This document shows positions 4,073-48,051 of a stretch of DNA of 64,000 bases, in pieces; positions within the stretch are counted from its first letter, which is position 1; each line of letters opens with the position of its first letter. The DNA lies in contig DCKO01000025.1 of assembly GCA_002320665.1 (NCBI GenBank), positions 21,482 to 85,481 of the forward strand. Reading direction: 5' to 3'. This stretch comes from Micavibrio sp. UBA1672. GTDB taxonomy: Bacteria; Pseudomonadota; Alphaproteobacteria; Micavibrionales; Micavibrionaceae. The translations under genes were made by a program, and so were the position numbers. Below the pieces are notes generated by a model. The model had not been told where the DNA came from. It searched no databases and worked only from the letters and a program-made list of their open reading frames with translations.

Positions 4073-5874
<1,802 letters not shown>

Positions 5875-5875
<1 letters not shown>

Positions 5876-9233: not shown

Positions 9234-9309
9234 GAGCTTAATTGGCCTTTCGAGAGAAGTTTGCTAGTTTTAAGAATCAGTGAATAAAGCCTAGCACGCA
9301 TAACAACAA

Positions 9310-10008: not shown

Positions 10009-10013
10009 CTGGC

Positions 10014-21150: not shown

Positions 21151-21855
21151 TTAACCTTGTATGCGTATCAGCATGGCACATGCATCAGCCTGGCTGTCTT
21201 CATCATAGGCGCCAGCAGCACCACAAGCAGCACCACCATCACCACCAGCAGAACCCGTTGTTGGGTCGCCATCATCAACTTTGCGGTCAATACGAGCCGC
21301 TTCAAGAGGCTGAAGACCAACGCCATTACCAGTGTTAACTGTAGCTATTGATAAATAATGCCCTGCTCTTGGGTTGGCAAGCAAACCGATTGCAGCGCCA
21401 CCAGCAGTGTAACCAGGTACAAATTCATTACCATCAATATTTGTGTCCAGGAAGCTGTTTGCCGCATCAAGACCTGAAATCAGATCAGCCGCTTCAAGCT
21501 GTAAGAAAAATGCTATTGATTCTGCATCTGCAAGTGCGCCAGCATTAAGAGGTGCAGCTTCAAGACGCTGGTTACCATTTGAAGCTGGATTACAAACACC
21601 ATCATTACAATTTGTAATTCTGTTGTTGGCATTCTGCATATCGCCAGGGAAGGAATCATACATATCGCGGAATGTACCAACGGCCGCGTCAACAGCTTTA
21701 ATTTGTGCCACTGTAGATGTTACTTGTGTATTAGCGATCATCTCCTGACCTTTCAGGATACCACCAACAAGCAAACCAATAATAATCATAACAACCGCCA
21801 ATTCGACAAGCGTAAAGCCCTCATCATTGCGGATAGAGTCGTACTGAGTAGTCAT
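21151..21855 (-). CDS. Type IV pilin (prepilin with N-methylation site)
   Basis: MTTQYDSIRNDEG|FTLVELAVVMIIIGLLVGG is a class III signal with Glu+5. AGGAGA RBS before ATG 21855. There are two Cys pairs in the C-terminal half. I rejected the longer ORF start at 21939. Confidence 0.85.
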   Translation of the reverse strand: MTTQYDSIRNDEGFTLVELAVVMIIIGLLVGGILKGQEMIANTQVTSTVAQIKAVDAAVGTFRDMYDSFPGDMQNANNRITNCNDGVCNPASNGNQRLEAAPLNAGALADAESIAFFLQLEAADLISGLDAANSFLDTNIDGNEFVPGYTAGGAAIGLLANPRAGHYLSIATVNTGNGVGLQPLEAARIDRKVDDGDPTTGSAGGDGGAACGAAGAYDEDSQADACAMLIRIQG

Positions 21856-22039
21856 AGTATTCTCCTTTATAAGAATAGATAGAATTTTAATAGTTGTGTT
21901 TAAGTAAGAAGTAGTTAAAGAACGTGCTGGACAGCACAAAGCGAATCATACACATCTTTTTCCATTTCTAAAAGCCTCAATATGTTCAGAATGATTTATT
22001 TTGCTAAAAAAACATTTAAAAACAGAGGGGTAAGTTCTC

Positions 22040-22072
22040 AAAAAGACAAAATGATAAGTTTTTATTTTGTCT
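22040..22072 (-). terminator. Rho-independent terminator after the AraC-family gene
   Basis: Minus-strand AGACAAAAU / AUUUUGUCU forms a perfect 9-bp stem with an 11-nt loop, followed by UUUUU. It lies 37 nt after the stop at 22109. Confidence 0.65.
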
Positions 22073-22108
22073 AGAGCAACATTATGTATAAAATATAGAC
22101 GTTTTGAT

Positions 22109-23179
22109 CTAGCCAATCATATTTTTGCGGTATTCTCTGGGGCTGCGCCCTTCGATTTCTTTGAAAACACGGTTAAAGGATGGCAGAGAATTAAAGCCAA
22201 CTTCCTCTGAAATGACCTTAATACTGATATCAGTTTCCAAAAGCATTCTTTTTGCATCCTCAACTCGGTGTTCATTCAGGATCGTTGGAAAAGATTTCTT
22301 GAAATGGACATTAATAATCTTTGAAACAAGGCTTTCCGATAACTCTAATTCCTTGGCCAGATCTGATCTGGAGTAACCTGTTTCATGATAAATTTTTTCT
22401 AATGCCAATAAATCCTCGATCTTCTTGGCAACGTCCAGTTCTTTTTCACTTAAAATATCTGCACGTGGCTTAGCGTCCCTAAGGCTTAGAGATTGCGGAT
22501 AAATACGTAGTAGACTTGTATTAATAAGGTAAATAAAAGCCAGCCCCAAGACTGTGCGCAAGATAACGGAATTTTCCTGATATTGGCTATTACCTAGGCT
22601 CAGCATAAAAGATGCTAGCAGAAAAATATTAACGAAAACTAGCGAAAGGATCACCCAATATCTTTCATTTCCAGATTTCTGCCTGTTAATGAGTGTAAAT
22701 AAATCTCGCCTGAACCATATAATCAACAAGCTAAGAGCACCAGCAATCATACCTGTAATATTAAGCCAACCGGAAAAATCGTTACATTTATCAATATATT
22801 TGCAATATTCTACGGTTGTGCTCTTGGTAATGATGATCGAGGCCAGCAGAGCCAATGGCACGAATAGCAACACCCCCCACTCTGCCAGTTTTGGGTTACT
22901 CTTGGCATGAGCCATTTGTATTATAAGAAGGGCGCTAATTGATGGGCCATAGCTCCATAGCGCCCAGTTTATGATGCTATAATAAGGTATAGCCTCGGAA
23001 ATATAGCGCTCCGCTAGATCAGCAAAAAAGGCTGCGCCTAAAATAAAAAAATAAATACACGGCAAAAGTATTGAATTGATATTTTGTGCCCGAAATACGA
23101 TATAAACAAGGATATAGACACACTGAAATACTCCCAAAAGCGAGAGAACCTCCTGTAAATTGAACTGGAACTGGTTCAT
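22109..23179 (-). CDS. AraC-family transcriptional regulator with a polytopic membrane N-terminal domain
   Basis: The first ~230 aa form six to seven hydrophobic helices. The C-terminal ~100 aa are a typical AraC double HTH (SRSDLAKELELSESLVSKIINVHFKKSF...VGFNSLPSFNRVFKEIEGRSPREYR). Confidence 0.85.
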   Translation of the reverse strand: MNQFQFNLQEVLSLLGVFQCVYILVYIVFRAQNINSILLPCIYFFILGAAFFADLAERYISEAIPYYSIINWALWSYGPSISALLIIQMAHAKSNPKLAEWGVLLFVPLALLASIIITKSTTVEYCKYIDKCNDFSGWLNITGMIAGALSLLIIWFRRDLFTLINRQKSGNERYWVILSLVFVNIFLLASFMLSLGNSQYQENSVILRTVLGLAFIYLINTSLLRIYPQSLSLRDAKPRADILSEKELDVAKKIEDLLALEKIYHETGYSRSDLAKELELSESLVSKIINVHFKKSFPTILNEHRVEDAKRMLLETDISIKVISEEVGFNSLPSFNRVFKEIEGRSPREYRKNMIG

Positions 23180-23193
23180 TTTTTTAAATGCCC

Positions 23194-23940
23194 TTACTTG
23201 TATTTGGGTACATTATCACATAACGGGTCTTTTTGGGCTTCCTCTTCGGATAAAATCTGGTTGCATATATGTGCCAACATTTGATTTACCTCTTGGGGCT
23301 GTAATTTCTCTGCCGAGGATTTTAGAATTTCGACCATTACTGTATAGGCAAGCTCTTTGTCTCCCTTTTCCCGTAAAACAAAGGACGGTATTTGTTTTGT
23401 GAATATAGGGATATCTTCCTTTTTATGATTTGCCAATTCTTTTGCTAGCTCAAGGGCTGTCTCATGGTCTTTCATATTTTTTCGGGCGACAACAACGGCT
23501 TGTAGTAAAAATCGCCATTTTTCATCTTCAGTGCGCAAGCCTATTTCTCTAAGGTAGGATAAAACAGGACGAAACCTTTCCGGCTCTTGAAGAGAACTAA
23601 AATAATATGCAGCTAAATAAGGTATGTAATTAGAAGTAGAATCCAGATAATCTTCTACATAAAACCAGTCTGTCAAAGTCTCGTATTTATAATCTTTTAG
23701 CGCTGTTACGCGGCCACCACTATCGCCCATATTCTGGATCATGATCCCTATAATGCGGTAGGCGAATTGAGAATCGCCCAGACCATAAAGCGCGGCATAT
23801 TTCTTATTCGGCGCGGGTGGCACATTACTCCATTCTGCCTGAAGGTTTCTAGAATAGAGCCAAAAAACAACATTTATTATCAAAGCCATTGCAAAGATAT
23901 ATATGACTTTTTTTTCTGCTTTTTTAGAGGCGTTAAGCAT
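23194..23940 (-). CDS. Hypothetical membrane-anchored helical protein
   Basis: One N-terminal TM (IYIFAMALIINVVFWLY) followed by a ~210-aa predicted periplasmic alpha-helical domain. It is tightly packed between the ABC-2 permease and the AraC gene. Confidence 0.45.
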   Translation of the reverse strand: MLNASKKAEKKVIYIFAMALIINVVFWLYSRNLQAEWSNVPPAPNKKYAALYGLGDSQFAYRIIGIMIQNMGDSGGRVTALKDYKYETLTDWFYVEDYLDSTSNYIPYLAAYYFSSLQEPERFRPVLSYLREIGLRTEDEKWRFLLQAVVVARKNMKDHETALELAKELANHKKEDIPIFTKQIPSFVLREKGDKELAYTVMVEILKSSAEKLQPQEVNQMLAHICNQILSEEEAQKDPLCDNVPKYK

Positions 23941-23948
23941 AGAAAGAC

Positions 23949-24713
23949 CTAGAATTGCCGTCTAATAAAATCCAGTAGAACAGCATTGATGATAAGAAAA
24001 TAAAAGACAAGACATTGCCCGATTATAAAGTAAATGGCAAAAAGATCACTGCTATAACCGTAAATCAGCCAGTTATTCTGAGCCATTAAATCGAGGCGTG
24101 GTATAAGAATGGAGACCAGATTCATCATCATATCAAGGGCCACATGGCTTTCAACAAGCTTAGATTCTATAATCCCCAATATCTGCCCCATCATGCGCGC
24201 CAAAATATAGAAGGCTGACAAGGCCATAGCAGCATTGGAAGCACTCGACATATAAAGAGCAAAGAAAAAGGCTGTGTTAACCATGATTATACTTTCCACG
24301 GTTAAGCTTAGGCCCCAGACCCACGCCCCACCGAAATCTTGCCGCAAATAATTCATTCCACAAACAAGAGCCAAAACAGCAAGGCTTAGCATGATTGCTA
24401 TGATATTGAACGCCATAGAATATGACAAAACAAAGGATATCCGCCCTATTGGCCTTGAGAGCAAAAACTCGACATCTTTGCTGTCATATGATTTTCGTAC
24501 AAAAAATATGACAAAGAGGCAAAGTCCTAGCACCGCGGCAATTCGAAGGCTTCCAGCGATAAAAACAACAGCAAATATATCCTGCTCGATAATAGCCGAG
24601 CTGCCTAGAAATACAGAAAGACTGGTTCCAACGACTAGGACCAGAAATAAGGCCAGTACCAGTCGATCACGCAAAGCCGCTATTAGAACATATTTAATCA
24701 GTGATGGAGACAT
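23949..24713 (-). CDS. ABC-2-type transporter permease
   Basis: Six hydrophobic helices, and the E-F-LLSRPIGR-x-x-F-VLS motif after TM2 that is typical of ABC-2 permease families (E-x-LL-[ST]-x-P-[IV]-x-R). Confidence 0.6.
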   Translation of the reverse strand: MSPSLIKYVLIAALRDRLVLALFLVLVVGTSLSVFLGSSAIIEQDIFAVVFIAGSLRIAAVLGLCLFVIFFVRKSYDSKDVEFLLSRPIGRISFVLSYSMAFNIIAIMLSLAVLALVCGMNYLRQDFGGAWVWGLSLTVESIIMVNTAFFFALYMSSASNAAMALSAFYILARMMGQILGIIESKLVESHVALDMMMNLVSILIPRLDLMAQNNWLIYGYSSDLFAIYFIIGQCLVFYFLIINAVLLDFIRRQF

Positions 24714-24737
24714 AAGCTAACTCAGAGATATTATTGC

Positions 24738-26636
24738 TTATAGTTTAAACGGTCTGCGGTCGCCAGAGAACTTACGGTACAGATCCTTATCTGTCGCATG
24801 AATAGTATCAGCACCGTCCTCAATTATTGTAGCCTTTATAAAAATAACCAATTCTGTTTTTGAAATTAAGTCATTTTGTTTCTTAAACAAAGACCCGACA
24901 ATCGGCATCTCACCTAGAACAGGCACGCCTTCTTGTAAATTTGTGGTTCGGTCCTGCAACAAACCACCCATCACGATGGCTTGGCCAGAGGAAACATTAA
25001 CAACAGTATCGATTTCCTGCACATTAACCTCTGGTATTAATGATTCAAGGTTGGCCGCGCCAGGAATTGTAGAGGCTGCAAAGGCTACACCTGGGTCGCG
25101 TTCTGTGCCGACAACACGTGTGACTGTTGGACGCAATGCCAATGAAATTTTTCTAGTATCCAGATTGATAGAAGGCTGAACGTTCACAAGAACCCCTTCT
25201 GGAACACTATTAATCGTTGAGTCAATTTCGACCGTATCGATATCTCCATCATCATCTTTATCTGTTGATTCAACTTCAATTTCAAAGAAGACCTGATTGG
25301 TTGCAACATTCAAGACAGCAGATTGGTTGTTGAGCGTTGTTAAGCGGGGGCTTGCCAAAGCGCGTACTGTACCAAAACCGGAGATTGCTTGCACCAAGGC
25401 CTCCAGATCATTTCCCAGGTAGCCAAGAGTAAAGTTATTGGGATTTGTACCGGACAGAGAAGAGCCGATCGGCGCTGTTACCAGACCTCTTGTTAAACCT
25501 GACGCAGCGGTATTAAGAGATGTTGCACCACCACTAGACAGAAAGTTACCGAATCCCTCAGGGCCAAGGGATAGAGCCTGCCAATCAATCCCCGTGATAT
25601 ATTCATCAAACAGATTTACTTCGAAAATCTTGGCTTCGATCAACACCTGAGATGTCACTGCTTTCTTTAAAACTTCCAGATATGCCTGAACTTCTTTTTG
25701 TTGCTTTTCAGTTGCATAAATATTGACCATACCGGCCTGTTTGTTGATCGAGAACTGCGTTGAGGCCTCGCCATCCCCTGTGCTGCTACCGAAATCATCA
25801 TTACCGGCATCGACTGGCAAGGATTCCACATTCAAGACCACTTCGCGGTCATCTTGATTATTCGTACTTCCGTTTTCGGAATTAACAGGGTTCGAAGGAG
25901 CTGCAGTAATTCTCGGATCTCGGTTTGTCCGCAAAGCAGACCCTCTTGCGCCTCCTAATATCTGAGAAAGTCCAGCTTCCAATTCACCCCAAAAATCAGA
26001 ATTACTCTCAGAGCTAGCAGAAAATGATGACCCAGTGTCAGCACCATCTCCAGAAACCACAGAAACATTCGTGCTAACAGCACCCTGATTATTTCTTATG
26101 AAACTCAAATAATCGATTTTGTAAAGTTTATTGTAAGGTGTATCCAACTCTACACGTAAGAAGTCTTCTTCAAATTTATAGCGCAATCCAGCAATATCAG
26201 AAATTCGCTTGATAACGACATCAAAAGGCTTGTTTCTGGCAGTAAATATAATAGACCCCCTGATATTCGGGTCTAGTTCAAGATCGTAATCAGCTTGTTT
26301 TGCCAACTCAAATAATACGTCTCTAATCGGTACAGATTGGTCAACAGCAACAGAGACCAAAGGCATTGGCTGGATGCTGGAGGTTGCCGTCGAGACATAA
26401 GGCTGCATCTCGGGAATTCCTACTCTATTGGAAGTATCGCTTGATGGTGTTTCGAGTTCAGGTGTACGCTCTGCCAAGCCATCACGGTAATCTTGTATCT
26501 CCATATTTCCGGCTCTGTCTGCTCTGGTGTAATTATGCGCCAAATCACAAGCCGACAAGGAAAAACAAACCAATATTGCCGGAAATAGTCCGAAAGGTTT
26601 ACTGGTTGTGTTTTTCAACTTTTGTAAAACAAACAT
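24738..26636 (-). CDS. Secretin, MshL-type lipoprotein (T4P/T2SS secretin family)
   Basis: Lipobox VCFSLSAC. N0-like domain (VSVAVDQSVPIRDVLFELAKQADYDLELDPNIRG). C-terminal secretin core (VLIEAKIFEV..., PRLTTLNNQSAVLNV, GQAIVMGGLLQDR...GVPVLGEMPIVGSLFK). I took ATG 26636 as the start rather than 26690. Confidence 0.9.
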   Translation of the reverse strand: MFVLQKLKNTTSKPFGLFPAILVCFSLSACDLAHNYTRADRAGNMEIQDYRDGLAERTPELETPSSDTSNRVGIPEMQPYVSTATSSIQPMPLVSVAVDQSVPIRDVLFELAKQADYDLELDPNIRGSIIFTARNKPFDVVIKRISDIAGLRYKFEEDFLRVELDTPYNKLYKIDYLSFIRNNQGAVSTNVSVVSGDGADTGSSFSASSESNSDFWGELEAGLSQILGGARGSALRTNRDPRITAAPSNPVNSENGSTNNQDDREVVLNVESLPVDAGNDDFGSSTGDGEASTQFSINKQAGMVNIYATEKQQKEVQAYLEVLKKAVTSQVLIEAKIFEVNLFDEYITGIDWQALSLGPEGFGNFLSSGGATSLNTAASGLTRGLVTAPIGSSLSGTNPNNFTLGYLGNDLEALVQAISGFGTVRALASPRLTTLNNQSAVLNVATNQVFFEIEVESTDKDDDGDIDTVEIDSTINSVPEGVLVNVQPSINLDTRKISLALRPTVTRVVGTERDPGVAFAASTIPGAANLESLIPEVNVQEIDTVVNVSSGQAIVMGGLLQDRTTNLQEGVPVLGEMPIVGSLFKKQNDLISKTELVIFIKATIIEDGADTIHATDKDLYRKFSGDRRPFKL

Positions 26637-26841
26637 AATATACTTAGCCCCTAGGAAATTTGATAAAGACATATGAAAGAAACAGAACAATCAAGGCGGA
26701 CGCCCATCAAGATTCCAACATAACTATATTGCGCTGTATGGTATGAAATATCGACTAGTTTTGGCAATAAGCTTCTTATTAGCTGTGAATAACTTAGTGC
26801 TAATATGGGAATTATTTTTTGAACTACAGAGCAAATTTAGC

Positions 26842-28833
26842 TTATTCAATACCTGCCAAAGGCGGTTCCCACTTATCATTTGATGCAGTGGCCTGCCAAT
26901 TCAGAATCACATCACCACTATGCGGGAATCCTAAACGGTCATTGTAATGAGCTAGTATTGCATCTCTGGTATCTTTATCATCTGTATTTGATACTGTTTC
27001 AAAAAGACGTTCAGCCTCACTAATGTCATTACGCGTGGCCATTTTCTTAATATATGGGATACTATCTACGCCGGCAGACAGGTTTCTGAAACCGGCCCCT
27101 AATAAAAGTCCAGTATATTTCGTATGTGAAGCCATTTCACCGCAAATACTGACAGGGAGGTTTTGTTTATTAGCCGCCGTAGCTATGTCTTTTAATGTTT
27201 CCAGAACAGCCGGTTCCGTTGGGTCATAAGCTTCAAGGTTTTCATCACTATAGCGATCAGGACCAATAATTTTTGCAATAAGATCATTCGAGCCCACCGA
27301 AATAAAATCAGCATTTAGCTTTCCTCTTTTTAAGGCATGAACGCCAGCAACGGTTTCAATCATTGCACCTACAGGGATCTTGGTCTTTACACCTTGCTTT
27401 GAGCATTCTTCCTCAAGCATCTGTCTGACTGGATCAAGGTCTGCATTAGAATTAACCATAGGCACCATAAGTTTAATCTTGGGCTTACGCCCCTCATCTT
27501 CCATTTTTTTGGCTAATAGAGCTATGTCTTCAATAAGACGCTTTGTTAGTTTTTCTTGATCCTGAGCACGTTTTTCTTCATCTATATTACCGTTTTTATC
27601 AAGAACTGGATATTTATCTCCCGCCAGATCCGGTGTTCTGATTGTTGCTTCAATATCTCCACAATTCCTTAAGTTACACTCAATGATGTGGAAGTAATTA
27701 TGGTCATTTTGCTTAAACTTAGATGATTATGTTTCACTTTCTTTGTCATAGCGCATGTCTGCAGCAACTTCAGTTCGATACAGTCCAATACTAACAGGGT
27801 TAGTCTCTCTAATCATATGTGATTCAAAAGAAGCAGCATAATTAGCGTGTATATTGACTTTCTCTCCATCTCTGGTTTTAACAGATTTGGTTTTGGTAGA
27901 ATCCTTAGCTAGTGCCTGAAATTGTTCTTCCCGTTTATCAACTTCACCTTCATAACCTTTGATAACACTTTTATTTGGATGAAGTAAAACCATGTTTTCG
28001 GAGCCATCCATAACAATAGGATCACGGTTCTTGATATGCTTCATATCATCTTGCTTGAGCCTGCCATAAGGAATGCCCAAAGCATCAATAATAATAGCTG
28101 CATGGCTTTCTAAACTTCCTTCATCGACCAAAACACCACTAACCTTCTTTTCTCCGGTCTCGGAATCACAAAGAGCGGATACTGCACTTAAGGATATTGA
28201 AGGCATAATCAGTATATCACCTTTTTTAACATCATTGATTGCTGATAAGGTTTTATCCGGATGCAAATGGTGTTGCATCGTTGCTCTGTGTTGTTGCAGT
28301 TCTGTCGCTCTGGCCCTAAGGTACTCATCGCCCATAGCCATGAATGTTGAAATTTGTTCTTCATAGAAACCATCAAGTGCAACTTCTGCAGATTGCCCGC
28401 TTTTTATAAGTGTCTGAATTCCTTCTTTAAATGTATGATCACTAACCATTCGGACTTCAGCACCCAGCACCTCTTTTACAATATCCTGTATCTCTATCGG
28501 GGCATTTTCTGCATCACTCAGATAGTTTTCGTAGGTTGTGATCGCTCTCTTGTGCGCATCTTCAAAACGTGAGAGCTGTTCTTCTACAAAGCTCTTTTTT
28601 CTGGCTTCCTGTTGTTCTATCGGCAATAAGTTGAATTCTTCTTCAGTGCGTCCAAAAACTTTTTCATACTCTTCATCTGACGGCTTTATACGGCTGATAT
28701 CAACAATATAAGCCTCCCCCACAGCCATTTTCGGACTCGAGAAATAAGCCGGAACGACCTGTGCACCATGCTTGTCATCAAAATGAGCGGCCAGCTCTGT
28801 TTTTCCATCTTGAGGATCGTCTGTCATTATCAC
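26842..28833 (-). pseudogene. PEP-utilising enzyme (PTS Enzyme I/PtsI-like) interrupted by one in-frame TAA
   Basis: ORFs 27727..28833 and 26842..27504 share a frame, and the only interruption is TAA at 27727-27729. Motifs present: LESHAAIIIDALGIPYG (phospho-His), GLYRTE, IRTPDLAGDK (in the bridging segment), VGSNDL and ICGEMA. Confidence 0.75.
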
Positions 28834-28894
28834 CCTATTATTTTTGCGTTATATTATAGAAATATTATTTATTGCGCAAGAAATAAGGCTCGGG

Positions 28895-30037
28895 TTACTC
28901 ACTGAAAGAAATACGGGATGTATCCACTGAATCCAACGCCCCGTGGCTTTCACGTGATTGTTTGACCAGATTTGCTTGCTGGATTTTTATTTTCATATCT
29001 GACGGCTTATCAGAATTTGAAATTGCCGATTCATCGGAAATCAGACCCTCTATATAAAGATTAAGTAAGGATTGATCGAATGTCATCATGCCCAGAGAGT
29101 TATTTTGCTCCATCACGTCATGGATTTTTCCGATCTCGCCTTTAAGGATCAAGTCACGGACAAAACCCTGATTCAGCAAAACTTCAATTGCCGGAGACAT
29201 GCCTCCTTCCAGATTTGGAAGCAATCTTTGCGAAATAATGGCCTTCAAATTCATGGAAAGATTCAATCTGATCTGGTTATGAAACTCCTCCGGGAACAGG
29301 TTTACAATACGCTCAATGGCCTGATAAGAGTTGTTCGTGTGGATCGTTGCCAAACATAAATGTCCGGTTTCCGAGATCGACAAGGCTTGCTCCATAACCT
29401 CACGATCACGTATCTCCCCGACCAGAATAACATCCGGTCTTTGACGCAGGGAATTTTTCATCGCGGTGGCAAAGCTTTCCGTATCAACACCCACTTCACG
29501 CTGTGTAACAACACAACCTTTATGCTCATGAAAAAATTCGATCGGGTCTTCAATTGTAATGATGTGGCCCTGACTGTTGCGGTTACGCTGATCGATCATA
29601 GCCGCCAGAGAAGTTGATTTACCAGAACCTGTCATACCTGTAACAAGAATCAATCCTCTTTTTTCCATAGAGAGTTGTTCAAGAATTTTAGGTAGTTTCA
29701 ATTCCTCAAAGCTTGGAATTTCCGATGTAATGCGGCGAATAACCAATGCAGGAAACTGACGCTGTTGCATAACATTGATACGAAATCGACCATGTTCTCC
29801 CATATCCAACGCTGTATTCAGCTCAAGATTAGCCTCGAAATCACGTTTTTGGCGGTTTGTCAGCATTGATGTCAGGATTTCATTAATATCATCCGGTGAT
29901 AGACTATATTCTGAAAGATTAACTAGACCGCTATCGCCACGCAAGGATGGTGGAAAACCCACTGTCAGGTATAAGTCACTGGCTTTGTGCTCATGCATAC
30001 TATTCAAGTATTGGAATATCTTAGGTGGTGTCGTCAA
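28895..30037 (-). CDS. pilU: PilT-family retraction ATPase, PilU-like
   Basis: ASDLYLTVGFPP, Walker A GMTGSGKSTSLAAMID, Asp/His boxes (IITIEDPIEF, VGEIRD, TGHLCLATIHTNN). It is the second of two tandem PilT paralogs and overlaps pilT by 4 nt. Confidence 0.85.
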   Translation of the reverse strand: MTTPPKIFQYLNSMHEHKASDLYLTVGFPPSLRGDSGLVNLSEYSLSPDDINEILTSMLTNRQKRDFEANLELNTALDMGEHGRFRINVMQQRQFPALVIRRITSEIPSFEELKLPKILEQLSMEKRGLILVTGMTGSGKSTSLAAMIDQRNRNSQGHIITIEDPIEFFHEHKGCVVTQREVGVDTESFATAMKNSLRQRPDVILVGEIRDREVMEQALSISETGHLCLATIHTNNSYQAIERIVNLFPEEFHNQIRLNLSMNLKAIISQRLLPNLEGGMSPAIEVLLNQGFVRDLILKGEIGKIHDVMEQNNSLGMMTFDQSLLNLYIEGLISDESAISNSDKPSDMKIKIQQANLVKQSRESHGALDSVDTSRISFSE

Positions 30038-31206
30038 AACGAATATCCTCCGTCTTCACTATCTCCTTGATCCGAGCTGCTCATATTCATGGATAGTTCT
30101 TCCCCGCCAATGCGGCCACCGCCCATAGAGGCTGAAGCATAGCCCTCATCACGCTCCCCACCTTCTGTTTCACTCTCTTCAGAGCTTTTTAGCAAGGCAC
30201 GTCTGGCTTCGTCTTTATCGATAATGCCGCCTTCTAGTAAATTACTGATTGCATCTTCCATGGTGATCATGCCGTAGCGTGAGCCTGTTTGCATCATGGA
30301 GTACATTTGCGGCACCTGATTCTCACGTATAAGATTTCGAACAGCATTTGTACCAACTAGAATTTCGAAAGCACCAACACGCCCTCCTCCCACTTTCTTT
30401 AAAAGTGTCTGTGCGACCACACCTTGCAAGGAACTGGAGAGCATAGCGCGCACCATTTCTTTATCGGCGCTGGGGAATACATCGATAATACGATCAATGG
30501 TTTTTGATGCTGAATTCGAGTGCAATGTGCCAAAAACAAGGTGACCTGTTTCAGCTGCTGTCAGAGCAAGTGATATTGTTTCATGATCACGCATCTCTCC
30601 GACCAGAATAACATCAGGGTCCTCACGCAGCGCACTTTTCAACGCTCTTGCGAAGCTATTTGTATCTTGACCAACCTCACGGTGGTTGATTAGTGATTTC
30701 TTTGATGTGTGAAAGAATTCAACAGGGTCTTCAATTGTCAAAACGTGTTTGGCATGATGAATATTAATATGATTAATCATAGAGGCCAATGTCGTTGATT
30801 TACCAGATCCTGTCGGACCAGTTACAAGCACAATACCTTTTTCAAGCTCAGCAAAGCGGCGTATGACAGGCGGTAAATCGAGTTGTTCCATTGTCGGTAT
30901 ATCACCAGGAATAGTCCTAAAAACTGCTGATGTTCCCAGACGGGTTGTAAACGCGTTTACACGAAAACGGGCCTTTTCACCCAGTGCAATAGCAAAGTCC
31001 AGCTCCATATCTTTTTCAAACTGGGAACGTTGATCCTCTGACATGACGGAATACAGCATTGTTCTGATGTCATCACTACCAAGAGAATCTGCCTTAACTC
31101 TCTTCATTGTTCCGCTAACACGAATGATCGGCGGATTACCGGCACTTAAATGTAAGTCCGATGCATTATTTTGCATTGTAAAGGCAAGAAGTTGCGTAAG
31201 ATCCAA
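30034..31206 (-). CDS. pilT: Twitching-motility ATPase PilT
   Basis: MDLTQLLAFTMQNNASDLHLSAGNPP, GPTGSGKSTTLASMINHIN, LTIEDPVEF, VGEMRD, TGHLVFGTLHSNS, AVRNLIRE. TTG start with an AAGGAGA RBS. There is a ~45-aa acidic Gly/Ser/Glu-rich C-terminal extension. Confidence 0.9.
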   Translation of the reverse strand: MDLTQLLAFTMQNNASDLHLSAGNPPIIRVSGTMKRVKADSLGSDDIRTMLYSVMSEDQRSQFEKDMELDFAIALGEKARFRVNAFTTRLGTSAVFRTIPGDIPTMEQLDLPPVIRRFAELEKGIVLVTGPTGSGKSTTLASMINHINIHHAKHVLTIEDPVEFFHTSKKSLINHREVGQDTNSFARALKSALREDPDVILVGEMRDHETISLALTAAETGHLVFGTLHSNSASKTIDRIIDVFPSADKEMVRAMLSSSLQGVVAQTLLKKVGGGRVGAFEILVGTNAVRNLIRENQVPQMYSMMQTGSRYGMITMEDAISNLLEGGIIDKDEARRALLKSSEESETEGGERDEGYASASMGGGRIGGEELSMNMSSSDQGDSEDGGYSF

Positions 31207-31343
31207 AAGACGTCTCCTTAAACTTTTTTATGATACGCAGAAAAAATATCCGGAAGTTCCCAGCTACTCACCTTCTCTTTGTACCTGAATTTTCTAAAGG
31301 GAACGTAAATTTTTTTATTATTTTTGGCATGATTTTGCATTTT

Positions 31344-32099
31344 TTATGAAGTTCCTTGCGTTAAGAGTAAGATATAGAGGGATAATATCAAGGCCGGTCC
31401 AAAAGGAAACTTAGCTTCCTTCACGATATATTTCCAGACAAGCCCAATGGCTACGCCGAGAACACCAGATAGAATCAGAAAATAAGACAGGTTTGAAAGT
31501 CCTAGCCATAGGCCGGAAGCTGCTGCAAATTTTACATCGCCTAAACCAAGCGCTTGTTTATTCAGAATTTTTCCAGTCAGCATACCCATGAGCCAAAATA
31601 TAAATGAAAAAACTACCGCCCCTGCCCCATATTCAATTAAATAGATGGATATATCCAGACCGTTACTAGCACCAATATAAGCAAGCCTTATAAGGCCAAA
31701 AGATGCTACGATAATAACCAGAATATCCGGCAGTCTTTTATGCTCTAGATCAATCAGAAATAGCGCAATAAGAAATGGTATAGTGAATATAATGATAAGG
31801 GCTTGCACCGTCATACCAAAGGCAGCATATATTCCCAAACATAGTAAGGCGCTACATATTTCCTGTAGCGGGTAAAATACCGAGACCTTGGAACCACATT
31901 GGCGGCATTGCCCTTTATTTACAGCCCAAGATAATAATGGAATAAGGTCGATTGCCGTTAAGGCTTTACCACAGGCCGAGCATGATGATCTTTTAGAAAT
32001 CCAATCTTTATTTCGTGGAATACGATAGGACAAAGCAGAGGCAAAGCTACCCATAATCAATCCTAAGACGGTGAAAATAACAATGCCTGTAAAATCCAT
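31344..32099 (-). CDS. pilD: Prepilin peptidase / N-methyltransferase (A24 family)
   Basis: CSACGKAL...CRQCGSKV zinc-binding pairs, DLEHKRLPD (first catalytic Asp), and LGLGDVKFAAASG (the GxGDxK second Asp). Confidence 0.9.
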   Translation of the reverse strand: MDFTGIVIFTVLGLIMGSFASALSYRIPRNKDWISKRSSCSACGKALTAIDLIPLLSWAVNKGQCRQCGSKVSVFYPLQEICSALLCLGIYAAFGMTVQALIIIFTIPFLIALFLIDLEHKRLPDILVIIVASFGLIRLAYIGASNGLDISIYLIEYGAGAVVFSFIFWLMGMLTGKILNKQALGLGDVKFAAASGLWLGLSNLSYFLILSGVLGVAIGLVWKYIVKEAKFPFGPALILSLYILLLTQGTS

Positions 32100-32116
32100 A
32101 ATTTTTTGATTACTGG

Positions 32117-32995
32117 CTATCTGATTTGTGCCAGACGCTCGAAAACAGCATCTCTTGGTATTGTGCGCCCCGAGCCATATAAAGTATCAACTTCAAGAGC
32201 TTCTTCGTAATATTTTATGGCGTTATCCGTATCACCATGTTGATCATAAATTATTGCCATATTGTAGATATGGTTGGCATTATGTGGCTCCATGCTAGAG
32301 GCCACGCCCAAATATCTAAGCGCTGAAGGGAAATCACCAGATTTTGAATAAGCGAATGCCAATTGAGAAACTATACCTACATTATCTGCATTATCCTGAT
32401 ATAGCTCTAGTAAACGTCTTTGCGCTACAGCTGGATAGCGCGTTGCAAGAAGCCCCAGCATATTTTGTTTTACATCAAGGTTATCTGGATCGAGCTTTGA
32501 AATTTTTTCATAAACTTTCATGGCTTCGTCAAAACGTCCAAGTTTTTGTAGGGATATTGCTTTTCCCATTAAAACACGACCATCATCACCAATTTTTCTT
32601 TCCAGCATTTCATACAAGTCCAGCGCAGAATCAAAGCGTCCTAAGGATATTGCACGTTCGGCAGCCACCAACTGAGAGCTTGTTGTACCAGCATCCTGAT
32701 CTCTGCGGACAACAACATAAGGTGCAGCGGGACGCTCCCGTGGGCTATACAGAACAGGTCCTTGGCTCCCCATCTCGCCTCTAGAGACATCATCCGAGTC
32801 ATAATATGTAGGCGAATCCATGGTTGGTTCACTTGCTGCAGTCGGGCCAGATATTGTATTCCCCTCAATTTGTGGGATTTCATCAAAGTCATCTGGCGGC
32901 ATATCCTGCGCGAAAGATGCTGATGTTACACTTGCGGACAACGCGAAAATGCACGCCGTAAAGACTAGTTTTTTGTATTTTATTGATAACGGCAT
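32117..32995 (-). CDS. Secreted TPR-repeat protein (PilF/MshN/Tgl-like candidate)
   Basis: Signal peptide MPLSIKYKKLVFTACIFALSASVTSASFAQ, followed by several TPR-like units (AISLGRFDSALDLYE, AISLQKLGRFDEAMKVYEK, AFAYSKSGDFPSALRYL, AIIYDQHGDTDNAIKYYEEAL). An alternative ATG at 33079 would overlap the ABC gene stop. Confidence 0.7.
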   Translation of the reverse strand: MPLSIKYKKLVFTACIFALSASVTSASFAQDMPPDDFDEIPQIEGNTISGPTAASEPTMDSPTYYDSDDVSRGEMGSQGPVLYSPRERPAAPYVVVRRDQDAGTTSSQLVAAERAISLGRFDSALDLYEMLERKIGDDGRVLMGKAISLQKLGRFDEAMKVYEKISKLDPDNLDVKQNMLGLLATRYPAVAQRRLLELYQDNADNVGIVSQLAFAYSKSGDFPSALRYLGVASSMEPHNANHIYNMAIIYDQHGDTDNAIKYYEEALEVDTLYGSGRTIPRDAVFERLAQIR

Positions 32996-33075
32996 ATTAG
33001 GCACACCCGAGAAATATGGACAGAAATATTGAAAGACAGAACGTCTTAGCAGAATCATATTGCATAAGGAGTATA

Positions 33076-33810
33076 TCATGCAGCGGCCTGCCCCTCAATA
33101 AAATCAAGGAAAGCATGCTCAAGATTTTTTGTGGATGTTTTTTTCTTCAGATTTTGTGGTGTCCCGACATATTGAATCCGGCCATTAAATAAGACTGCAA
33201 CACGGTCACAGATTTCATCCATATCCGCCAGAATATGAGAACTTAAAAATATCATTTTATCCTTATGCTTAACCTGCCCGATCATATCCTTCACTTTTGA
33301 TCTGGCCATTGGATCAAGGCCACTCATTGGTTCATCCAGAATCATAACATCACAATCAGTTAAGAGCGTACCCATAAGGCCTAGCTTTTGACGCATACCT
33401 TTGGAATAAGTGTTAACTTTACGCTTTAGAGCAGCTCTATCCAAGGCCAGCGCGTCTGCAGCATTATAGACTTCGTCTTCTGAAATGCTTTTTTTATACA
33501 GGCCGAGCGAGAATTTTATGAATTCCATACCCGTTAAAAACCATGGTGGTTCGAATTTTTCAGGTAAGTAAGCCATATTCTTTTTACTTGTGGCATTATC
33601 GCGTGCCTGATTATTAATCAGGATTTCACCTTCATCCTGATTTCTTAAGGATAAGATGCACTTGATTAAAGTGGTTTTTCCTGCACCGTTCAAACCAATC
33701 AGACCGAAGATTTCACCATGATTAATCTCCAGATTTACCTCTTCGATGACGGGCTTGTCAGTATATGTAACGGAAACATCTTTTATAGATAAAGCGACTG
33801 TTTTACTCAT
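33076..33810 (-). CDS. ABC transporter ATP-binding protein
   Basis: Walker A GLNGAGKTT, Q-loop, signature YSKGMRQKL, Walker B VMILDEPMSGLD, and H-loop SSHIL. Confidence 0.9.
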   Translation of the reverse strand: MSKTVALSIKDVSVTYTDKPVIEEVNLEINHGEIFGLIGLNGAGKTTLIKCILSLRNQDEGEILINNQARDNATSKKNMAYLPEKFEPPWFLTGMEFIKFSLGLYKKSISEDEVYNAADALALDRAALKRKVNTYSKGMRQKLGLMGTLLTDCDVMILDEPMSGLDPMARSKVKDMIGQVKHKDKMIFLSSHILADMDEICDRVAVLFNGRIQYVGTPQNLKKKTSTKNLEHAFLDFIEGQAAA

Positions 33811-33834
33811 AATAATCTATAACTACTTATATTG

Positions 33835-34404
33835 TTATTCACCCATTAAAAAGATACGTTGATCCAAGTTAAACCGCTGGTTTGTCTTTAATTTGATTGG
33901 ATAAATAGTATTGGTAAATGCATCCAGCCATTTAAGTTCGATGTAATCCTTATATACAACCAGATCAAGAATTTCCTCGGGGATTGAATCTGGCTTTACA
34001 CGTTGATTATTAAGCCATATTGTCCAGTCTTTTTCTGTTTTGAAGGCGATACCCCCAAGTTTTATTTCCCGAATTCCCCTATTTGGTGTGAATTCATCTT
34101 CACTATTTAACTCTTGCTCGGTGGGCGCCTTTACAAAGCCTCTGCTTTCTTTCATTTCCTTGATGGATTGGTGTTGCCAGAATGTGAAGAACAACGATGG
34201 ATATGACTTGTTTTTAGCTGGTTTTGTTGGTGTTTTTGGTATTTCAGGCTGCTCATTTTCAACAGATTCAGGCGGAGGAGGCATCCCCTCAATCTTTATA
34301 ATATCTTCTTCTTGTGCATAAGTTTTAGGTATGCTTAGAGCTGTCAGGCTCGTGCACATAACACATAAAAAAGCAAAATATAAACTTGTCTGTTTTACCT
34401 TCAT
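33835..34404 (-). CDS. Hypothetical periplasmic protein (PilP/MshK-position candidate)
   Basis: Signal peptide, a Pro-rich linker (MPPPPESVENEQPEIPKTPTKP), then a small beta-rich C-terminal domain (IKLGGIAFKTEKDWTIWLNNQRV). The assignment rests on architecture and gene position only. Confidence 0.35.
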   Translation of the reverse strand: MKVKQTSLYFAFLCVMCTSLTALSIPKTYAQEEDIIKIEGMPPPPESVENEQPEIPKTPTKPAKNKSYPSLFFTFWQHQSIKEMKESRGFVKAPTEQELNSEDEFTPNRGIREIKLGGIAFKTEKDWTIWLNNQRVKPDSIPEEILDLVVYKDYIELKWLDAFTNTIYPIKLKTNQRFNLDQRIFLMGE

Positions 34405-35052
34405 TTATCTATTCCTTTGCTCGTCCCCTATAACCTGGGATTCCGGAATAATTGTACGCCAAGATAGCTTTACCTCACCCTTGACCAAAACAGGGCTAGA
34501 GCCTGCTGCGATAGCACGCAGTACTGCTGCACTGATATCGCGAGACCTTGTGACAGTGATCGCATCAACAGATAGATGTCCGGGCAAAGTTTGCTGCGCC
34601 AAATCAATATATTTATATATATCCGAGTCATCAAAGGCTTCTATTTCAATTTCAACAGGGCTGTACAAGATTTTGTGCTTCGCTTTTTGAGCTTCTTCAT
34701 TATTTTCAACCGTACCAGATTTTACGCTGACTACAGCTGATATGACGTTAGAGCTTTCTTGCACCTGATTGAAAATGGCTTTGGCCATACTCCGTTCCTG
34801 ATTGTTGAAAAACCCTTGCTCTTTCAACAAATCAAACTCGTTTTGTTGCTCGTCTAATTGTTCGAATTCTATTTTCAAACGATCAATATCAGATGTTAAA
34901 CCACTGACACTTCTTCTAAGTTTTGTTAAATCACGCTCCGACGATTCTTGCATAGGCACCATATATAGATATACGAGCGCTGCCATACTTGCATTTAAGA
35001 CAATAAGTATCAGCAATAGAATTATTCGTCTTGGCCCTATTATATTGATCAT
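34405..35052 (-). CDS. Hypothetical bitopic protein (PilO/GspM/MshJ-like architecture)
   Basis: Short cytoplasmic N-terminus, one TM (IILLLILIVLNASMAALVYLYMV), a coiled coil, then a ~100-aa periplasmic domain. It is translationally coupled on both sides (ATGA overlap upstream, TAA-ATG abutting downstream). Confidence 0.4.
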   Translation of the reverse strand: MINIIGPRRIILLLILIVLNASMAALVYLYMVPMQESSERDLTKLRRSVSGLTSDIDRLKIEFEQLDEQQNEFDLLKEQGFFNNQERSMAKAIFNQVQESSNVISAVVSVKSGTVENNEEAQKAKHKILYSPVEIEIEAFDDSDIYKYIDLAQQTLPGHLSVDAITVTRSRDISAAVLRAIAAGSSPVLVKGEVKLSWRTIIPESQVIGDEQRNR

Positions 35053-36644
35053 AGTTGCGGCCCCTCAATTGTAATTTCCGCGACATAGTCCTGCTGCTTG
35101 TTTTTCGTCCCTATTTGTCCGGTTTCAACAACGATCTCTTCGCTGTATTCATAATCTTCAAGGAACTTTGTAACTTTTACCGTATGGTCCTTTAGCAAAG
35201 TCTGTAGTTTTTCCTGTAATTTTCGGACCTCCATATTGCCCTTTAAAACATCGGCGTCACTTGGGAAGGTCATTTGCATAGTCGCGATATAATTGGGTGG
35301 TGCTTGTTGTTGCCCGCGACCAGACGTGAAACGTGACAAGAAATTCTCACCGCGCTTTACATTCATATTGTCGATACGCAGATCACGCCCCAAGCCTATA
35401 GAAATTTTCTGGACCAGATCCAGAATATTGACTTGCCTCTTTTCCAGTTTATCGTGAATAGTCAAAGAGCTTTGTATTAACTGAATATCAAAGCCCATAT
35501 CCTGTTTGCGTTTAACTTCTTGATTATACCGTAACTGAAGCGTTGACCGACGGTTTTCGTATTCTTCTATTTGTTCCCAGTTCTGGTTCAGATCATCAAA
35601 TTTATTCATTAAATCATAGGCCTGATACCCAGCACCTAACACCAGAAGAACCGAGACCAAGGTAGCAATTTGTCTGGGTTGGGAAACTTTATCAATTTCC
35701 TTAGCCTTTAGAGGAAGGATAAACTTGCTTTTACCGCCAGCCCAAGCAACATGAAGCACATCTGCATATTTAGGATCTTGCTGATAACCAAGCGGAATTT
35801 TAAGGTAATCGGCGGCTTCTTGCGCATTTATATGATGATAATTGCATGGCGTTTCGATCATATTTCCCAGCATCTCTCCTGTCTGGGAATCGGAAATAAA
35901 AATAACATCCAGCCCATCATCAGCATTAAAACCAAATCTGGAAAGGTAGCTCATAGTGGCTTTAAATTCCTGATGAACATCTTCTGATATTTGTACAGGA
36001 TCGTCCTCGTTATCAGATATTGGCGTCATACGTGTAAGAGCTAATTCACCGTTATTGATAACAACCTGACGTAAACCTCCGCCTTTATGCATACCGATAA
36101 AAATCTTCCATTTAGATTTCTTATGCCCTTTAGAATGGATTTTCTCGGAGAGTTTTTTAACCATGTCAGAGGATTCGATAGGCAAAAGACAAAAACCGGC
36201 GATCGGTGCTAAAGATTTATTTGTGGCGGCAAGAACCTTTTTAAAGTTTTCTGTCGCCGGAATAGCTGCAAAAATATACAGCCCCCCGGATTTTAGTTTC
36301 TTTTTTGTTTTTTTATCTTCCTTTAAGGGTAATGCTGCGCGTACAGGATAATTCTGGAAAGCCACCATAAGCTTACGTTTGATCACGTTTTGCTTATCCA
36401 TGATACTGACTTTGGGGATACGTTCCTTTCGATAATGTTGTTCGACCATGTCATTTAGAACAAGAACAGGCTTACCTTTACAGTCTCTGGATAAAATCTG
36501 AGCTACATTGTCGACAAAACCGTCAGCATCCCACGGAACAGTATCAATCAGACGCACGCCTTTGGAGCTGTTACTATATACAAATAGTGCTTCATCAGAA
36601 ACTAGTAGGACTGTTCTAGAAGGTGTCAAAAACGAAAGTGACAT
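35049..36644 (-). CDS. Hypothetical bitopic protein (GspL/MshI-like; PilM-PilN fusion architecture)
   Basis: 531 aa: a ~325-aa cytoplasmic domain, a single TM (IATLVSVLLVLGAGY, about residues 326-342), and a ~190-aa coiled-coil/periplasmic domain. It lies directly downstream of pilB-pilC. I saw no sequence motif; the call is from architecture only. Confidence 0.4.
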   Translation of the reverse strand: MSLSFLTPSRTVLLVSDEALFVYSNSSKGVRLIDTVPWDADGFVDNVAQILSRDCKGKPVLVLNDMVEQHYRKERIPKVSIMDKQNVIKRKLMVAFQNYPVRAALPLKEDKKTKKKLKSGGLYIFAAIPATENFKKVLAATNKSLAPIAGFCLLPIESSDMVKKLSEKIHSKGHKKSKWKIFIGMHKGGGLRQVVINNGELALTRMTPISDNEDDPVQISEDVHQEFKATMSYLSRFGFNADDGLDVIFISDSQTGEMLGNMIETPCNYHHINAQEAADYLKIPLGYQQDPKYADVLHVAWAGGKSKFILPLKAKEIDKVSQPRQIATLVSVLLVLGAGYQAYDLMNKFDDLNQNWEQIEEYENRRSTLQLRYNQEVKRKQDMGFDIQLIQSSLTIHDKLEKRQVNILDLVQKISIGLGRDLRIDNMNVKRGENFLSRFTSGRGQQQAPPNYIATMQMTFPSDADVLKGNMEVRKLQEKLQTLLKDHTVKVTKFLEDYEYSEEIVVETGQIGTKNKQQDYVAEITIEGPQL

Positions 36645-36687
36645 TGTTAAAAAAAAGCCTGTGAAAAAATACGAACTGTGTGTCTTT

Positions 36688-37887
36688 TTAGCCGATAGCT
36701 TCCATCATATTGCCAAGATTCATATAGATCGGACCAAGGGAGCCAGCTGCTATCCAAACAATCACGAGTGCCAGTATAACAGTTAATGTCGGTTGAATCA
36801 TCTCAATTAGCGCATCTATAGCTTCATCCACATCTTTTGTATAAAATTCGCAAATCTGAATCAAAACAGGCGTCAGATTTCCTGATTCTTCACCAATTTT
36901 TACCATTCTTGTTACCATATTTGGAAATTCGCCTGATGCTCTGAAAGCATCGGAGAGCGGACTACCGGACTTAACGTAATGCTCGACTCCTTCCATAGCA
37001 TCAATCAATGCTAAATTGGATACAGTTTGACGTGCGGATTTAAGGCCATTCAGCACATCAATACCACTTTCGAAAAGCGCTCCAAATGTCTGGGCATATC
37101 TGGCGATAGATATTTTACGGATTAGCGGCCCGATAACAGGCATATTCAAATACATAACATCCATTTTATAGGCAATTTCATCCGATAATCGTCTGATTAT
37201 CATTAGAAATGACATAATTAATATAGGCACAACTAAAACAATGATTGCTCCATATATAGGTAGCCCTAATATCTTGAATTGCGGCTCAACAAAGAAATCC
37301 GAAGTTGACATGAGCGCCGTTGTATACCAAGGCAGTTCAATACTCAGATATTTTAAAAATCCTACAACCTGTGGAACAACCATGGTCATCATGAAAACAA
37401 TGGTAAAGAGGACAACTACGGTTACGATTATCGGATAGCGTGTCGCCTTCTTGATTTTGGATTGCATGGCATCCAGCCATTTAAGGTATTTCTCTAATTG
37501 CAAATAAGAGGATGTCAGGTCACCAGTGTCCTCACCTGCTTTGATAATTGATATAAAAAGAGGTTTAAAAACTTTTGGATGTTTTGCTAAAGCTTCGGAT
37601 AGTGATGCGCCGTCGCGGACATCACGATGAATTTCACTCATCATATCACGCATCATATCATTTTCTGCGCCATCTCGAATATCTCCCAAAGCATCAAGCA
37701 AGGGTACACCTGCGCTTTGCATTTGTTCCATATGAATAAAGAACTGGATTAGATCTCTAAGCTTTACCTTTTGCAGCGTAATAGTGGGTAGCGAGCTTTT
37801 CTTTTTTGTCAAAGAAGCACATTGAATTAATTCAAGCCCTGCACTTTGAAGCTGATTATGTAAGTCAACTTCGTTCATCGCCGCCAA
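36688..37887 (-). CDS. pilC: Type IV pilus platform protein PilC/GspF family
   Basis: Two GspF repeats with three TM segments. The conserved N-terminal coding sequence continues upstream of TTG 37887 to a TAA at 37960-37962 with no ATG/GTG/TTG (see finding). Coordinates given are the canonical-start ORF. Confidence 0.85.
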   Translation of the reverse strand: MAAMNEVDLHNQLQSAGLELIQCASLTKKKSSLPTITLQKVKLRDLIQFFIHMEQMQSAGVPLLDALGDIRDGAENDMMRDMMSEIHRDVRDGASLSEALAKHPKVFKPLFISIIKAGEDTGDLTSSYLQLEKYLKWLDAMQSKIKKATRYPIIVTVVVLFTIVFMMTMVVPQVVGFLKYLSIELPWYTTALMSTSDFFVEPQFKILGLPIYGAIIVLVVPILIMSFLMIIRRLSDEIAYKMDVMYLNMPVIGPLIRKISIARYAQTFGALFESGIDVLNGLKSARQTVSNLALIDAMEGVEHYVKSGSPLSDAFRASGEFPNMVTRMVKIGEESGNLTPVLIQICEFYTKDVDEAIDALIEMIQPTLTVILALVIVWIAAGSLGPIYMNLGNMMEAIG

Positions 37888-37983
37888 TGTCCCGCGGACA
37901 GGACGACCCTTTACATTTATGGCTCTGTACTTATAGCGTTCTATAGCTTTAACTCCAATTTAGACAAAAGAAAAGACTGACCA

Positions 37984-40301: not shown

Positions 40302-41417
40302 TTACTCAGCTGCGATCGCTGTAACTGAAGCGTCTTTACGCGGCCATGAGGTAAATGTGAATAAAGTTTCATCAATACCGCAAATTGTGGCACTAATTCT
40401 TGCCGCTACAAGGTAAGGATCAGAGTTGGCACCCGGACGACGATCTTCAAAATAGCCATAGCCTTTAAGTGCAACAGGTTTTGGAATACGAATTGAACAT
40501 CCACGGTCAGCTTCACCGGCTTTGAATGTGTTAATGTCACATGTTTCATGCAAGCCTGTAAGACGATCAGCCAAACCGGCACCATAAAGAATAACGTGTT
40601 CTTTGTGCTTTTTACCAAGAGCTTCAACAGCAGCTTCAATAGCAGCCTTACCCTTAGACTTGTCGCGTGTGTCATTTGTAGAAACGTTTGTGTGCATACC
40701 TGCACCGTTCCAATCACCTTTTACTGGCTTGTTGTCCAGAGAAACACCAACACCATATTCTTCACCTACACGGTAAAGCAACCAACGGGCAATATGCATT
40801 TCATCTGTCACGCGAAGCGCTGAAGCTGGTTCTTTTGGATCACCACGGAAACCAATTTGGAATTCCCATTGTCCGGGCATCACTTCCGCATTAATTCCGT
40901 AGAACATTAAACCGGCATCGAGGCAAAGCTGGGCGTGGTCTTCGGCGATTTCGCGGCCAAAAATTTCATCGGCACCGACACCACAATAATATGGGCCTTG
41001 CGGACCCGGGTAACCGTGTTTAGGCCAGCCAAGAGGTGTTCTGTTTTTGAATAATGTGTATTCCTGTTCAAAACCAAACCATGGGTCTTGAGCACTTGCA
41101 CCAGCATCCAAAACAGCACGTAATTGTGCGCGTGAATTTGATTCATGCGGTGTGCCATCAGGGTTATTGACTTCGCACATTACCAAGTAATTGCCTTCGC
41201 CGCGGACAGGATCCTTAACGAAGTGAACTGGTTGAAGGATACAGTCTGAGTCACTACCGTCAGCCTGCATTGTAGAAGAGCCATCAAAGCTCCATTCTGG
41301 GAAATCCTCAATATCAGGATTAGCACCCAGATCAACAACACGTGCCTTGGAACGAAGACAGCGCGTAGGCACAGCACCATCAAGCCAAATATATTCGGCT
41401 AAAGTAAAATTAGGCAT
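40302..41417 (-). CDS. glnII: Glutamine synthetase, type II (eukaryote-like GSII)
   Basis: AEYIWLDG...RSK, FDGSST, GWPKHGYPGPQGPYYCGVGA, PGQWEFQIG, DWNGAGMHTN and SIRIP are hallmark GSII blocks. Confidence 0.9.
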   Translation of the reverse strand: MPNFTLAEYIWLDGAVPTRCLRSKARVVDLGANPDIEDFPEWSFDGSSTMQADGSDSDCILQPVHFVKDPVRGEGNYLVMCEVNNPDGTPHESNSRAQLRAVLDAGASAQDPWFGFEQEYTLFKNRTPLGWPKHGYPGPQGPYYCGVGADEIFGREIAEDHAQLCLDAGLMFYGINAEVMPGQWEFQIGFRGDPKEPASALRVTDEMHIARWLLYRVGEEYGVGVSLDNKPVKGDWNGAGMHTNVSTNDTRDKSKGKAAIEAAVEALGKKHKEHVILYGAGLADRLTGLHETCDINTFKAGEADRGCSIRIPKPVALKGYGYFEDRRPGANSDPYLVAARISATICGIDETLFTFTSWPRKDASVTAIAAE

Positions 41418-46968: not shown

Positions 46969-47192
46969 GTTTCCAACTTCACCAGTCTTAAAAAAGTTAT
47001 ACAAATACCTGATTCAATATATAAAATTTAGGCACAAAACTCTACTCTGCGCGATATAGTTATGCACAGCTAAATTCAAATATTGATATTAGCTAACCCG
47101 ACTAAATTCTCTGTAATTCCGCTAATGTCGTCGAGTGATCTTAAGGTACTTGCAACCACCTTTCCGGCGCAACCCGAAAGGTAAAAAAAAAA

Positions 47193-48050: not shown

Positions 48051-48051
48051 C

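Follow-up and report, generated by a model that had tools for sequence, protein, structure and literature searches.

The enzymes closest to the gene described here are the two types of Enzyme I. PTS Enzyme I (PtsI; E. coli, PDB 2HWG/2KX9; TIGR01417) is composed of an EIN domain, a phospho-His swivel and a PEP-binding TIM barrel, in that order, and the gene at our locus has the same domain order. EI-Ntr (PtsP) is the other type, and its gene usually lies between lysC and prfA in Alphaproteobacteria. In many Alphaproteobacteria the position between chvI-chvG and ahcY holds hprK, EIIA-Man and npr. A literature search returned nothing on the present gene or on its assembly accession.

The gene is encoded on the minus strand of a 64-kb stretch of DNA from Micavibrio sp. 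UBA1672, which was analysed whole and is called the window below. A preliminary description had read it as a full-length EI-like gene apart from one codon, located between pilU and the secretin gene of a pilus cluster. Our frame check bears this out: ORFs 27727..28833 and 26842..27504 (both minus strand) belong to one frame, 26842-28833, that has a single in-frame TAA at 27727-27729 and 662 sense codons in total, including the 74-codon bridge between the two ORFs. The parts of the gene are listed here.

26842..28833, minus strand: whole EI-like frame, a probable pseudogene (frame, Pfam domains, colinearity with E. coli EI 2HWG)
27730..28827, minus strand: N-terminal ORF of 366 codons, encoding EIN (HPr-binding), the phospho-His swivel and the first PEP-barrel strand, GLYRTE (Pfam, gene calls)
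28102-28104, minus strand: phospho-His codon, within the N-terminal ORF
27727..27729, minus strand: in-frame TAA with T as the next base, in the loop after GLYRTE (frame, contig comparison)
27505..27726, minus strand: bridge of 74 codons, encoding IRTPDLAGDK, the equivalent of E. coli EI R332/D335/K340 (frame, alignment)
26842..27504, minus strand: C-terminal ORF of 220 codons plus stop, encoding the remaining barrel, MIE(493), SND(516-517) and the catalytic Cys (ORF, Pfam, alignment)
27142-27144, minus strand: catalytic Cys codon, within the C-terminal ORF

A GTG at 28833 opens the frame and a TAA at 26842-26844 is its terminal stop. The ATG at 28827 is more likely than this GTG to be the start; it is preceded by AGGGTGA, and initiation there gives the 366-aa product reported by independent gene callers. 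The C-terminal ORF begins just ahead of the LMVPM strand.

Domain searches were run on the read-through translation (663 positions). All three Pfam domains of the family score above their cut-offs: PEP-utilisers_N (E 1.8e-14), the PEP-utilizers mobile (His) domain (1.6e-8) and PEP-utilizers_C (4.1e-40), the last of which matches residues 312-601 and crosses the stop at residue 369. The motifs present are LESH(244)AAI, GLYR(353)TE, IR(399)TPD(402)LAGDK(407), VGSN(516)D(517)L and IC(564)GEMA. An HMM alignment to the solved E. coli EI (2HWG) is colinear (residues 83-613 versus 36-551, E 4e-33), and E. coli EI residues H189, R296, R332, D335, K340, E431, N454/D455 and C502 all have conserved equivalents in the read-through product, with H244, C564, R353, R399, K407, E493, N516 and D517 among the aligned conserved residues. 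The alignment and motif positions thus agree with the preliminary description, which had noted an IRT-type PEP motif in the bridge and an intact phospho-His loop, VGSNDL and ICGEMA.

The gene falls within a clade with sharp limits, made up of 23 clusters that are 34-46% identical to it and encode proteins of 635-683 aa. All 22 other members are uninterrupted within this size range; none is split and none is a stand-alone N-fragment. One is annotated merely as a hypothetical protein. Below the clade, scores fall to canonical PtsP and PtsI at 24-29% identity. In a genome-collection scan with the clade alignment (generic SxGSNDL motif), the matches listed were only canonical EI at 24-29% identity and included no clade members.

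Several characters separate the gene from PtsI. Identity is ~25%, and the TIGR01417 score of 223.3 bits is below the equivalog cut-off of 341.7. The gene is a family-level relative of PTS Enzyme I and not a PtsI equivalog. The NPxLGxRG(I/A)R loop, which carries R358 in E. coli EI, has no counterpart in the window gene or in the whole clade; the charged segment that replaces it (…EEKRAQDQEKL…) contains an Arg, the equivalence of which to R358 is unproven. A QHRATMQHHLHPDK motif peculiar to it and a ~40-residue C-terminal tail also mark the clade. Sugar-PTS and HPr genes are absent nearby, no HPr/NPr or EIIA gene was found in the 64-kb window, and the window copy is broken by the TAA.

Outside the clade, the database search places EI-Ntr nearest, with identities of 26-29%. 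PtsP-type matches have an N-terminal GAF domain (PF13185/PF01590), whereas Pfam finds none in the window gene or the clade. The window gene is also not at the lysC-prfA site, which is occupied here by a RodZ-like gene and ygjV. The gene order at 46534-52753 is a ubiG-like methyltransferase, then lysC, the RodZ-like HTH protein, ygjV, prfA, prmC, DUF4167 and clpB, with ptsP absent between lysC and prfA, and the lineage may lack canonical EI-Ntr. Elsewhere in the window there is a TPP riboswitch at 3615-3703 (63 bits, above the gathering score) upstream of thiC (4085-5875), an ordinary arrangement. Positions 55858-57150 encode a 430-aa protein made up nearly entirely of pentapeptide repeats (Pfam E 2e-60).

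We examined the neighbourhoods of eight intact clade members. Five share the block trpFBA-accD-folC-chvI-chvG(-rapZ-like)-EI, bordered by ahcY-PAS kinase-tsaE-addBA. One (P0011) is part of a flagellar cluster, with fliM on one side and the genes of a CheY-like regulator, CheZ and MotB on the other, and one adjoins an aconitase gene. The flagellar-cluster member (L011/L012, 10001-13303) adjoins the CheY-like receiver and CheZ genes in a MAG that is labelled Zetaproteobacteria yet carries an alphaproteobacterial fliX. On L013, L014 and L099 (~9050-12000) the EI-like gene directly follows the RapZ-like gene, downstream of chvI-chvG. These placements hint that the clade could be a regulatory-PTS variant.

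The pilus cluster occupies 21151-40068 on the minus strand and is an unusual, conserved MSHA-like type IVa system. Its genes are, in order, a PilB/MshE-like ATPase (with a c-di-GMP-binding MshEN domain), PilC, three genes without a family match (531, 215 and 189 aa), an ABC ATPase, a TPR protein, a prepilin peptidase, PilT, PilU, the secretin, two membrane proteins that are likewise family-less, an AraC regulator and a prepilin-like protein. The same pilus gene order recurs in many Micavibrio-like MAGs (L100-L102), and secretin homologues with 55-75% identity are found in Alphaproteobacteria MAGs and Micavibrio sp., by which the organism is placed with the marine Micavibrio-like Alphaproteobacteria. 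The features around the EI-like gene are as follows.

28895-30037, minus strand: PilU-type retraction ATPase, upstream neighbour (TIGR01420, 427 bits, above the cut-off)
28834..28894, minus strand: spacer of 61 nt from the pilU stop to the EI start, holding a palindrome, a TATAAT box and the AGGGTGA ribosome-binding site; upstream insertion edge (sequence, palindrome search)
28865-28886: 22-nt palindrome TTATTTATTGCGCAAGAAATAA, directly after the pilU stop, at the upstream insertion edge (palindrome search)
26784..26795, minus strand: motif AAGTTATTCACA, downstream insertion edge (aligned against pilU-secretin spacers from L100, L101 and L102)
24738-26690, minus strand: secretin, MshL-like, downstream neighbour (profile match, homologue search)

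In 13 related loci that have both genes, pilU is followed by the secretin gene at a distance too short for a 2-kb gene, and a tblastn search of the ±6-8 kb flanks gave no EI match. The closest sister locus (L104; pilU 92% and secretin 75% identical) has a pilU-secretin gap of 162 nt. The EI-like gene is thus an insertion specific to this lineage. The motif AAGTTATnCACA occurs ~10-60 nt past the pilU stop in L100, L101 and L102 and past the EI gene in the window, and therefore brackets an insertion of ~2.1 kb that comprises the gene, 61 nt upstream and ~45 nt downstream. The sequence AAGTTAT(T/G/A)CACA is kept upstream of the secretin gene across lineages whose intergenic regions cannot otherwise be aligned. 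We regard it as a candidate promoter or operator for the secretin/AraC portion of the pilus genes. We infer that the spacer at 28834-28894 could hold a promoter, and a consensus promoter scan reported no match there.

A transposon-like insertion was considered and rejected, as the flanks have no terminal inverted repeats and no target duplications. Recent horizontal transfer was rejected as well: in GC, GC3 and synonymous codon usage the gene falls inside the range of its host. From the host-like composition and the lack of transposon-like repeats, the insertion would therefore be either ameliorated, and so old, or an intragenomic relocation. The preliminary description had suggested that the gene might couple PEP status to pilus activity and that EI-like genes be sought inside other T4P clusters. 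Such genes are present in none of the 13 related pilus loci, and none of the eight intact clade members is located in a pilus cluster, so this coupling is unsupported.

The stop itself is reproducible and real; errors of sequencing or assembly do not account for it. Fifteen public contigs (TARA stations, JGI 3300020433, NCBI MDSV01003432) encode the 366-aa N-fragment without any difference. The ten that we fetched comprise ENA re-assemblies, TARA Oceans scaffolds from several stations, JGI 3300020433 and NCBI MDSV01003432; they are 99.94-100% identical to the window at the DNA level over 2.2-6.6 kb and have the gene order pilT, pilU, EI-N, EI-C, secretin. The same TAA is present in all ten, in the context GAAACA-TAA-TCATCT (ACATAATCA), and the site GAAACATAATCATCT is identical in 10 of 10 loci. 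Error is excluded because these contigs derive from independent ocean metagenomes.

We also looked for an intact allele. With the read-through product as query, no protein spanning the stop was found in a collection of 5.8 billion sequences, and there is no match between 100% identity (the N-fragment) and 45% identity (the best full-length match). A query of the bridge plus the C-terminal part returned only the 220-aa C-fragment, at 75% query coverage; no database protein covers the 74-codon bridge. The nonsense allele appears to be fixed in the nearly clonal ocean population that was sampled. P0243 was considered as a deleted or rearranged allele and rejected: its contig, L103, consists of window DNA that runs at 27246 into an unrelated phage-like primase/helicase ORF; it has 3x coverage, is probably chimeric and was left out of the evidence. 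The primase/helicase side is L103 1-1097, the junction is inside the EI C-terminal part, and L010, from the same sample, ends at 27332. The junction is probably due to chimeric assembly, the alternative being a real insertion in some cells.

The ten loci contain four SNPs in 6.5 kb. Three are nonsynonymous and located downstream of the stop, in the C-terminal ORF (27431, 27389 and 27354), and the fourth is in the third-last codon of pilU; the count is thus three nonsynonymous SNPs downstream of the stop versus one in the remaining 5.7 kb, which are small numbers. P25L and V39E occur together on one haplotype (three contigs), and the position of V39E is hydrophobic (or Thr) in every aligned relative. 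T51P is near a contig end, with the SNP at 27354 being 22 nt from that end. No SNPs were found in pilT, the secretin gene or the N-fragment among these loci. Both haplotypes carry the TAA, and the stop therefore predates them. The pattern may point to relaxed constraint on the 3′ part, given three to four SNPs in a nearly clonal population, and on these small numbers we infer that this part would be free of selection.

The remainder of the frame is well preserved. There is no second lesion, the 662 codons being intact apart from the stop and all tested catalytic motifs being kept. At clade-conserved columns the window gene deviates at 18 of 114, mostly conservatively, which is comparable to the intact long-branch member P0023 (21 of 115). 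Because the rest of the frame is intact and divergence is not in excess, only the stop and the few SNPs speak for a dead gene. The preliminary description had called for comparison with relatives at the stop site; all 22 are uninterrupted there, and three have Tyr or Phe after "ET" (P0012 DTY, P0013 ETY, P0003 ETF), in a variable-length loop. The simplest ancestral codon would be a Tyr TAY, lost by a TAY-to-TAA transversion. Lys, Glu, Gln, Ser and Leu codons are likewise one step from TAA, and the alignment column is ambiguous because the window gene has a four-residue insertion at the stop. A possible second pseudogene, the "short" glutamine synthetase at 40302-41417, proved to be a full-length GlnII, and the window therefore shows no sign of genome-wide decay.

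Four other accounts of the interrupted frame were weighed. That one base change is all that mars the frame could suggest an artefact in an intact gene, as the preliminary description had allowed, but the identical TAA across samples, assemblers and providers (ENA, JGI, NCBI, TARA; ten contigs fetched, 15 on record) refutes this and the protein collection has no intact product, so that its probability is close to nil. A functional full-length EI might be made, perhaps at a low and regulated level, by read-through of the stop or by a suppressor tRNA. The downstream frame is open for 294 codons with all catalytic motifs kept, and the nonsense allele is fixed in all samples, both of which would fit this account; a recent pseudogene would equally leave an open frame of this length. 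Against it, the window's genes use TAA more than any other stop (33 of 57 genes, six in TAA-T context), and the genome encodes RF1 (48052-49116) and PrmC, the RF1 methylase (47193-48095). No tRNA was found within the 64-kb window. In model bacteria UAA-U terminates strongly, and no bacterium that recodes UAA as sense is known to us; read-through would therefore be only leaky and inefficient. The downstream polymorphisms, all nonsynonymous, also argue against a full-length product, and functional read-through is, in our estimate, highly unlikely. A natural split, in which the N-terminal ORF and the 220-aa C-terminal ORF give two subunits that reassemble into an active enzyme, was another option of the preliminary description. 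Both ORFs are predicted by gene callers, and the C-terminal one starts with ATG. The two products could not rebuild the PEP-binding barrel, though, because the untranslated bridge (27505-27726) holds IRTxDxxGDK with its R/D/K ligands and has no ATG, GTG or TTG in frame; the barrel would be short of two elements and key ligands. By eye there is no convincing ribosome-binding site before ATG 27504. With the key strand in the bridge and no split member in the clade, a two-subunit enzyme is extremely unlikely.

The truncation may instead be tolerated or useful, with the 366-residue EIN and phospho-His product serving as a phosphocarrier or sink with an HPr/NPr-like partner while only the 3′ part decays. 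The N-fragment comes with a ribosome-binding site and a start of its own, it is identical in 15 of 15 contigs, its 90% protein cluster is a single sequence with no amino-acid variant while the C-fragment cluster has variants, and all SNPs within the EI-like gene are downstream of the stop. The EIN domain of E. coli, on its own, is able to pass phosphate to HPr and take it back, which also counts in favour of this account. But zero variants in 1.1 kb are expected by chance at such low diversity, and pilT and the secretin gene have none either. In addition, no other clade member is a stand-alone N-fragment, the window lacks an HPr/NPr gene, and a barrel strand without its partners would form the end of the product. 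We consider a useful stub improbable. A broader version holds that the clade is a mobile regulatory module that recurrently lands beside motility machinery (the flagellar and CheY-CheZ genes in P0011, the pilus operon here) and that the 366-residue EIN-His fragment acts here as a phosphocarrier modulating pilus retraction (PilT/PilU) or the secretin operon; we regard this as very doubtful.

By far the most probable explanation is a lineage-specific EI-like insertion that has become a recent nonsense pseudogene. The preliminary description had listed a very recent pseudogene among its options, and this one has the most support: there is no record of an intact allele, every polymorphism downstream of the stop is nonsynonymous and TAA is the main stop. 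In this explanation a divergent EI-family gene without GAF would have inserted, as a gene-sized segment of ~2.1 kb, between pilU and the secretin gene of the MSHA-like pilus operon in one lineage of uncultured marine Micavibrio-like Alphaproteobacteria, and would have stayed long enough to acquire host composition. A single nonsense substitution (TAA) would then have cut the gene after the first strand of the PEP-binding TIM barrel. Translation is predicted to end at the TAA, and the next usable start is 74 codons on, beyond the IRTxDxxGDK strand with its essential PEP ligands; consequently no PEP-competent enzyme would be made, and at most a 366-residue stub of EIN and the His domain. The nonsense allele would have swept to fixation in the sampled, nearly clonal population, and the 3′ part would be starting to gather amino-acid-changing polymorphisms.

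If the gene is a one-lineage and already inactivated insertion, it gives no ground to argue for PTS control of type IV pili. It may instead be a case of early gene death, in which a nearly clonal planktonic population has fixed a nonsense mutation across ocean basins. The clade is an unnamed, small and divergent EI subfamily without GAF in uncultured marine Alphaproteobacteria and may be their version of the regulatory PTS. For annotation of the regulatory PTS in marine Alphaproteobacteria this is of minor help.

Compared with ordinary nonsense pseudogenes of free-living bacteria, the pattern at this locus is the same: a frame intact but for one disabling substitution, an allele fixed in a clonal population, and nonsynonymous polymorphisms that are beginning to appear downstream. 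Nothing in it is unusual for such pseudogenes, and the gene is distinctive only as an uncommon EI variant within a pilus operon.
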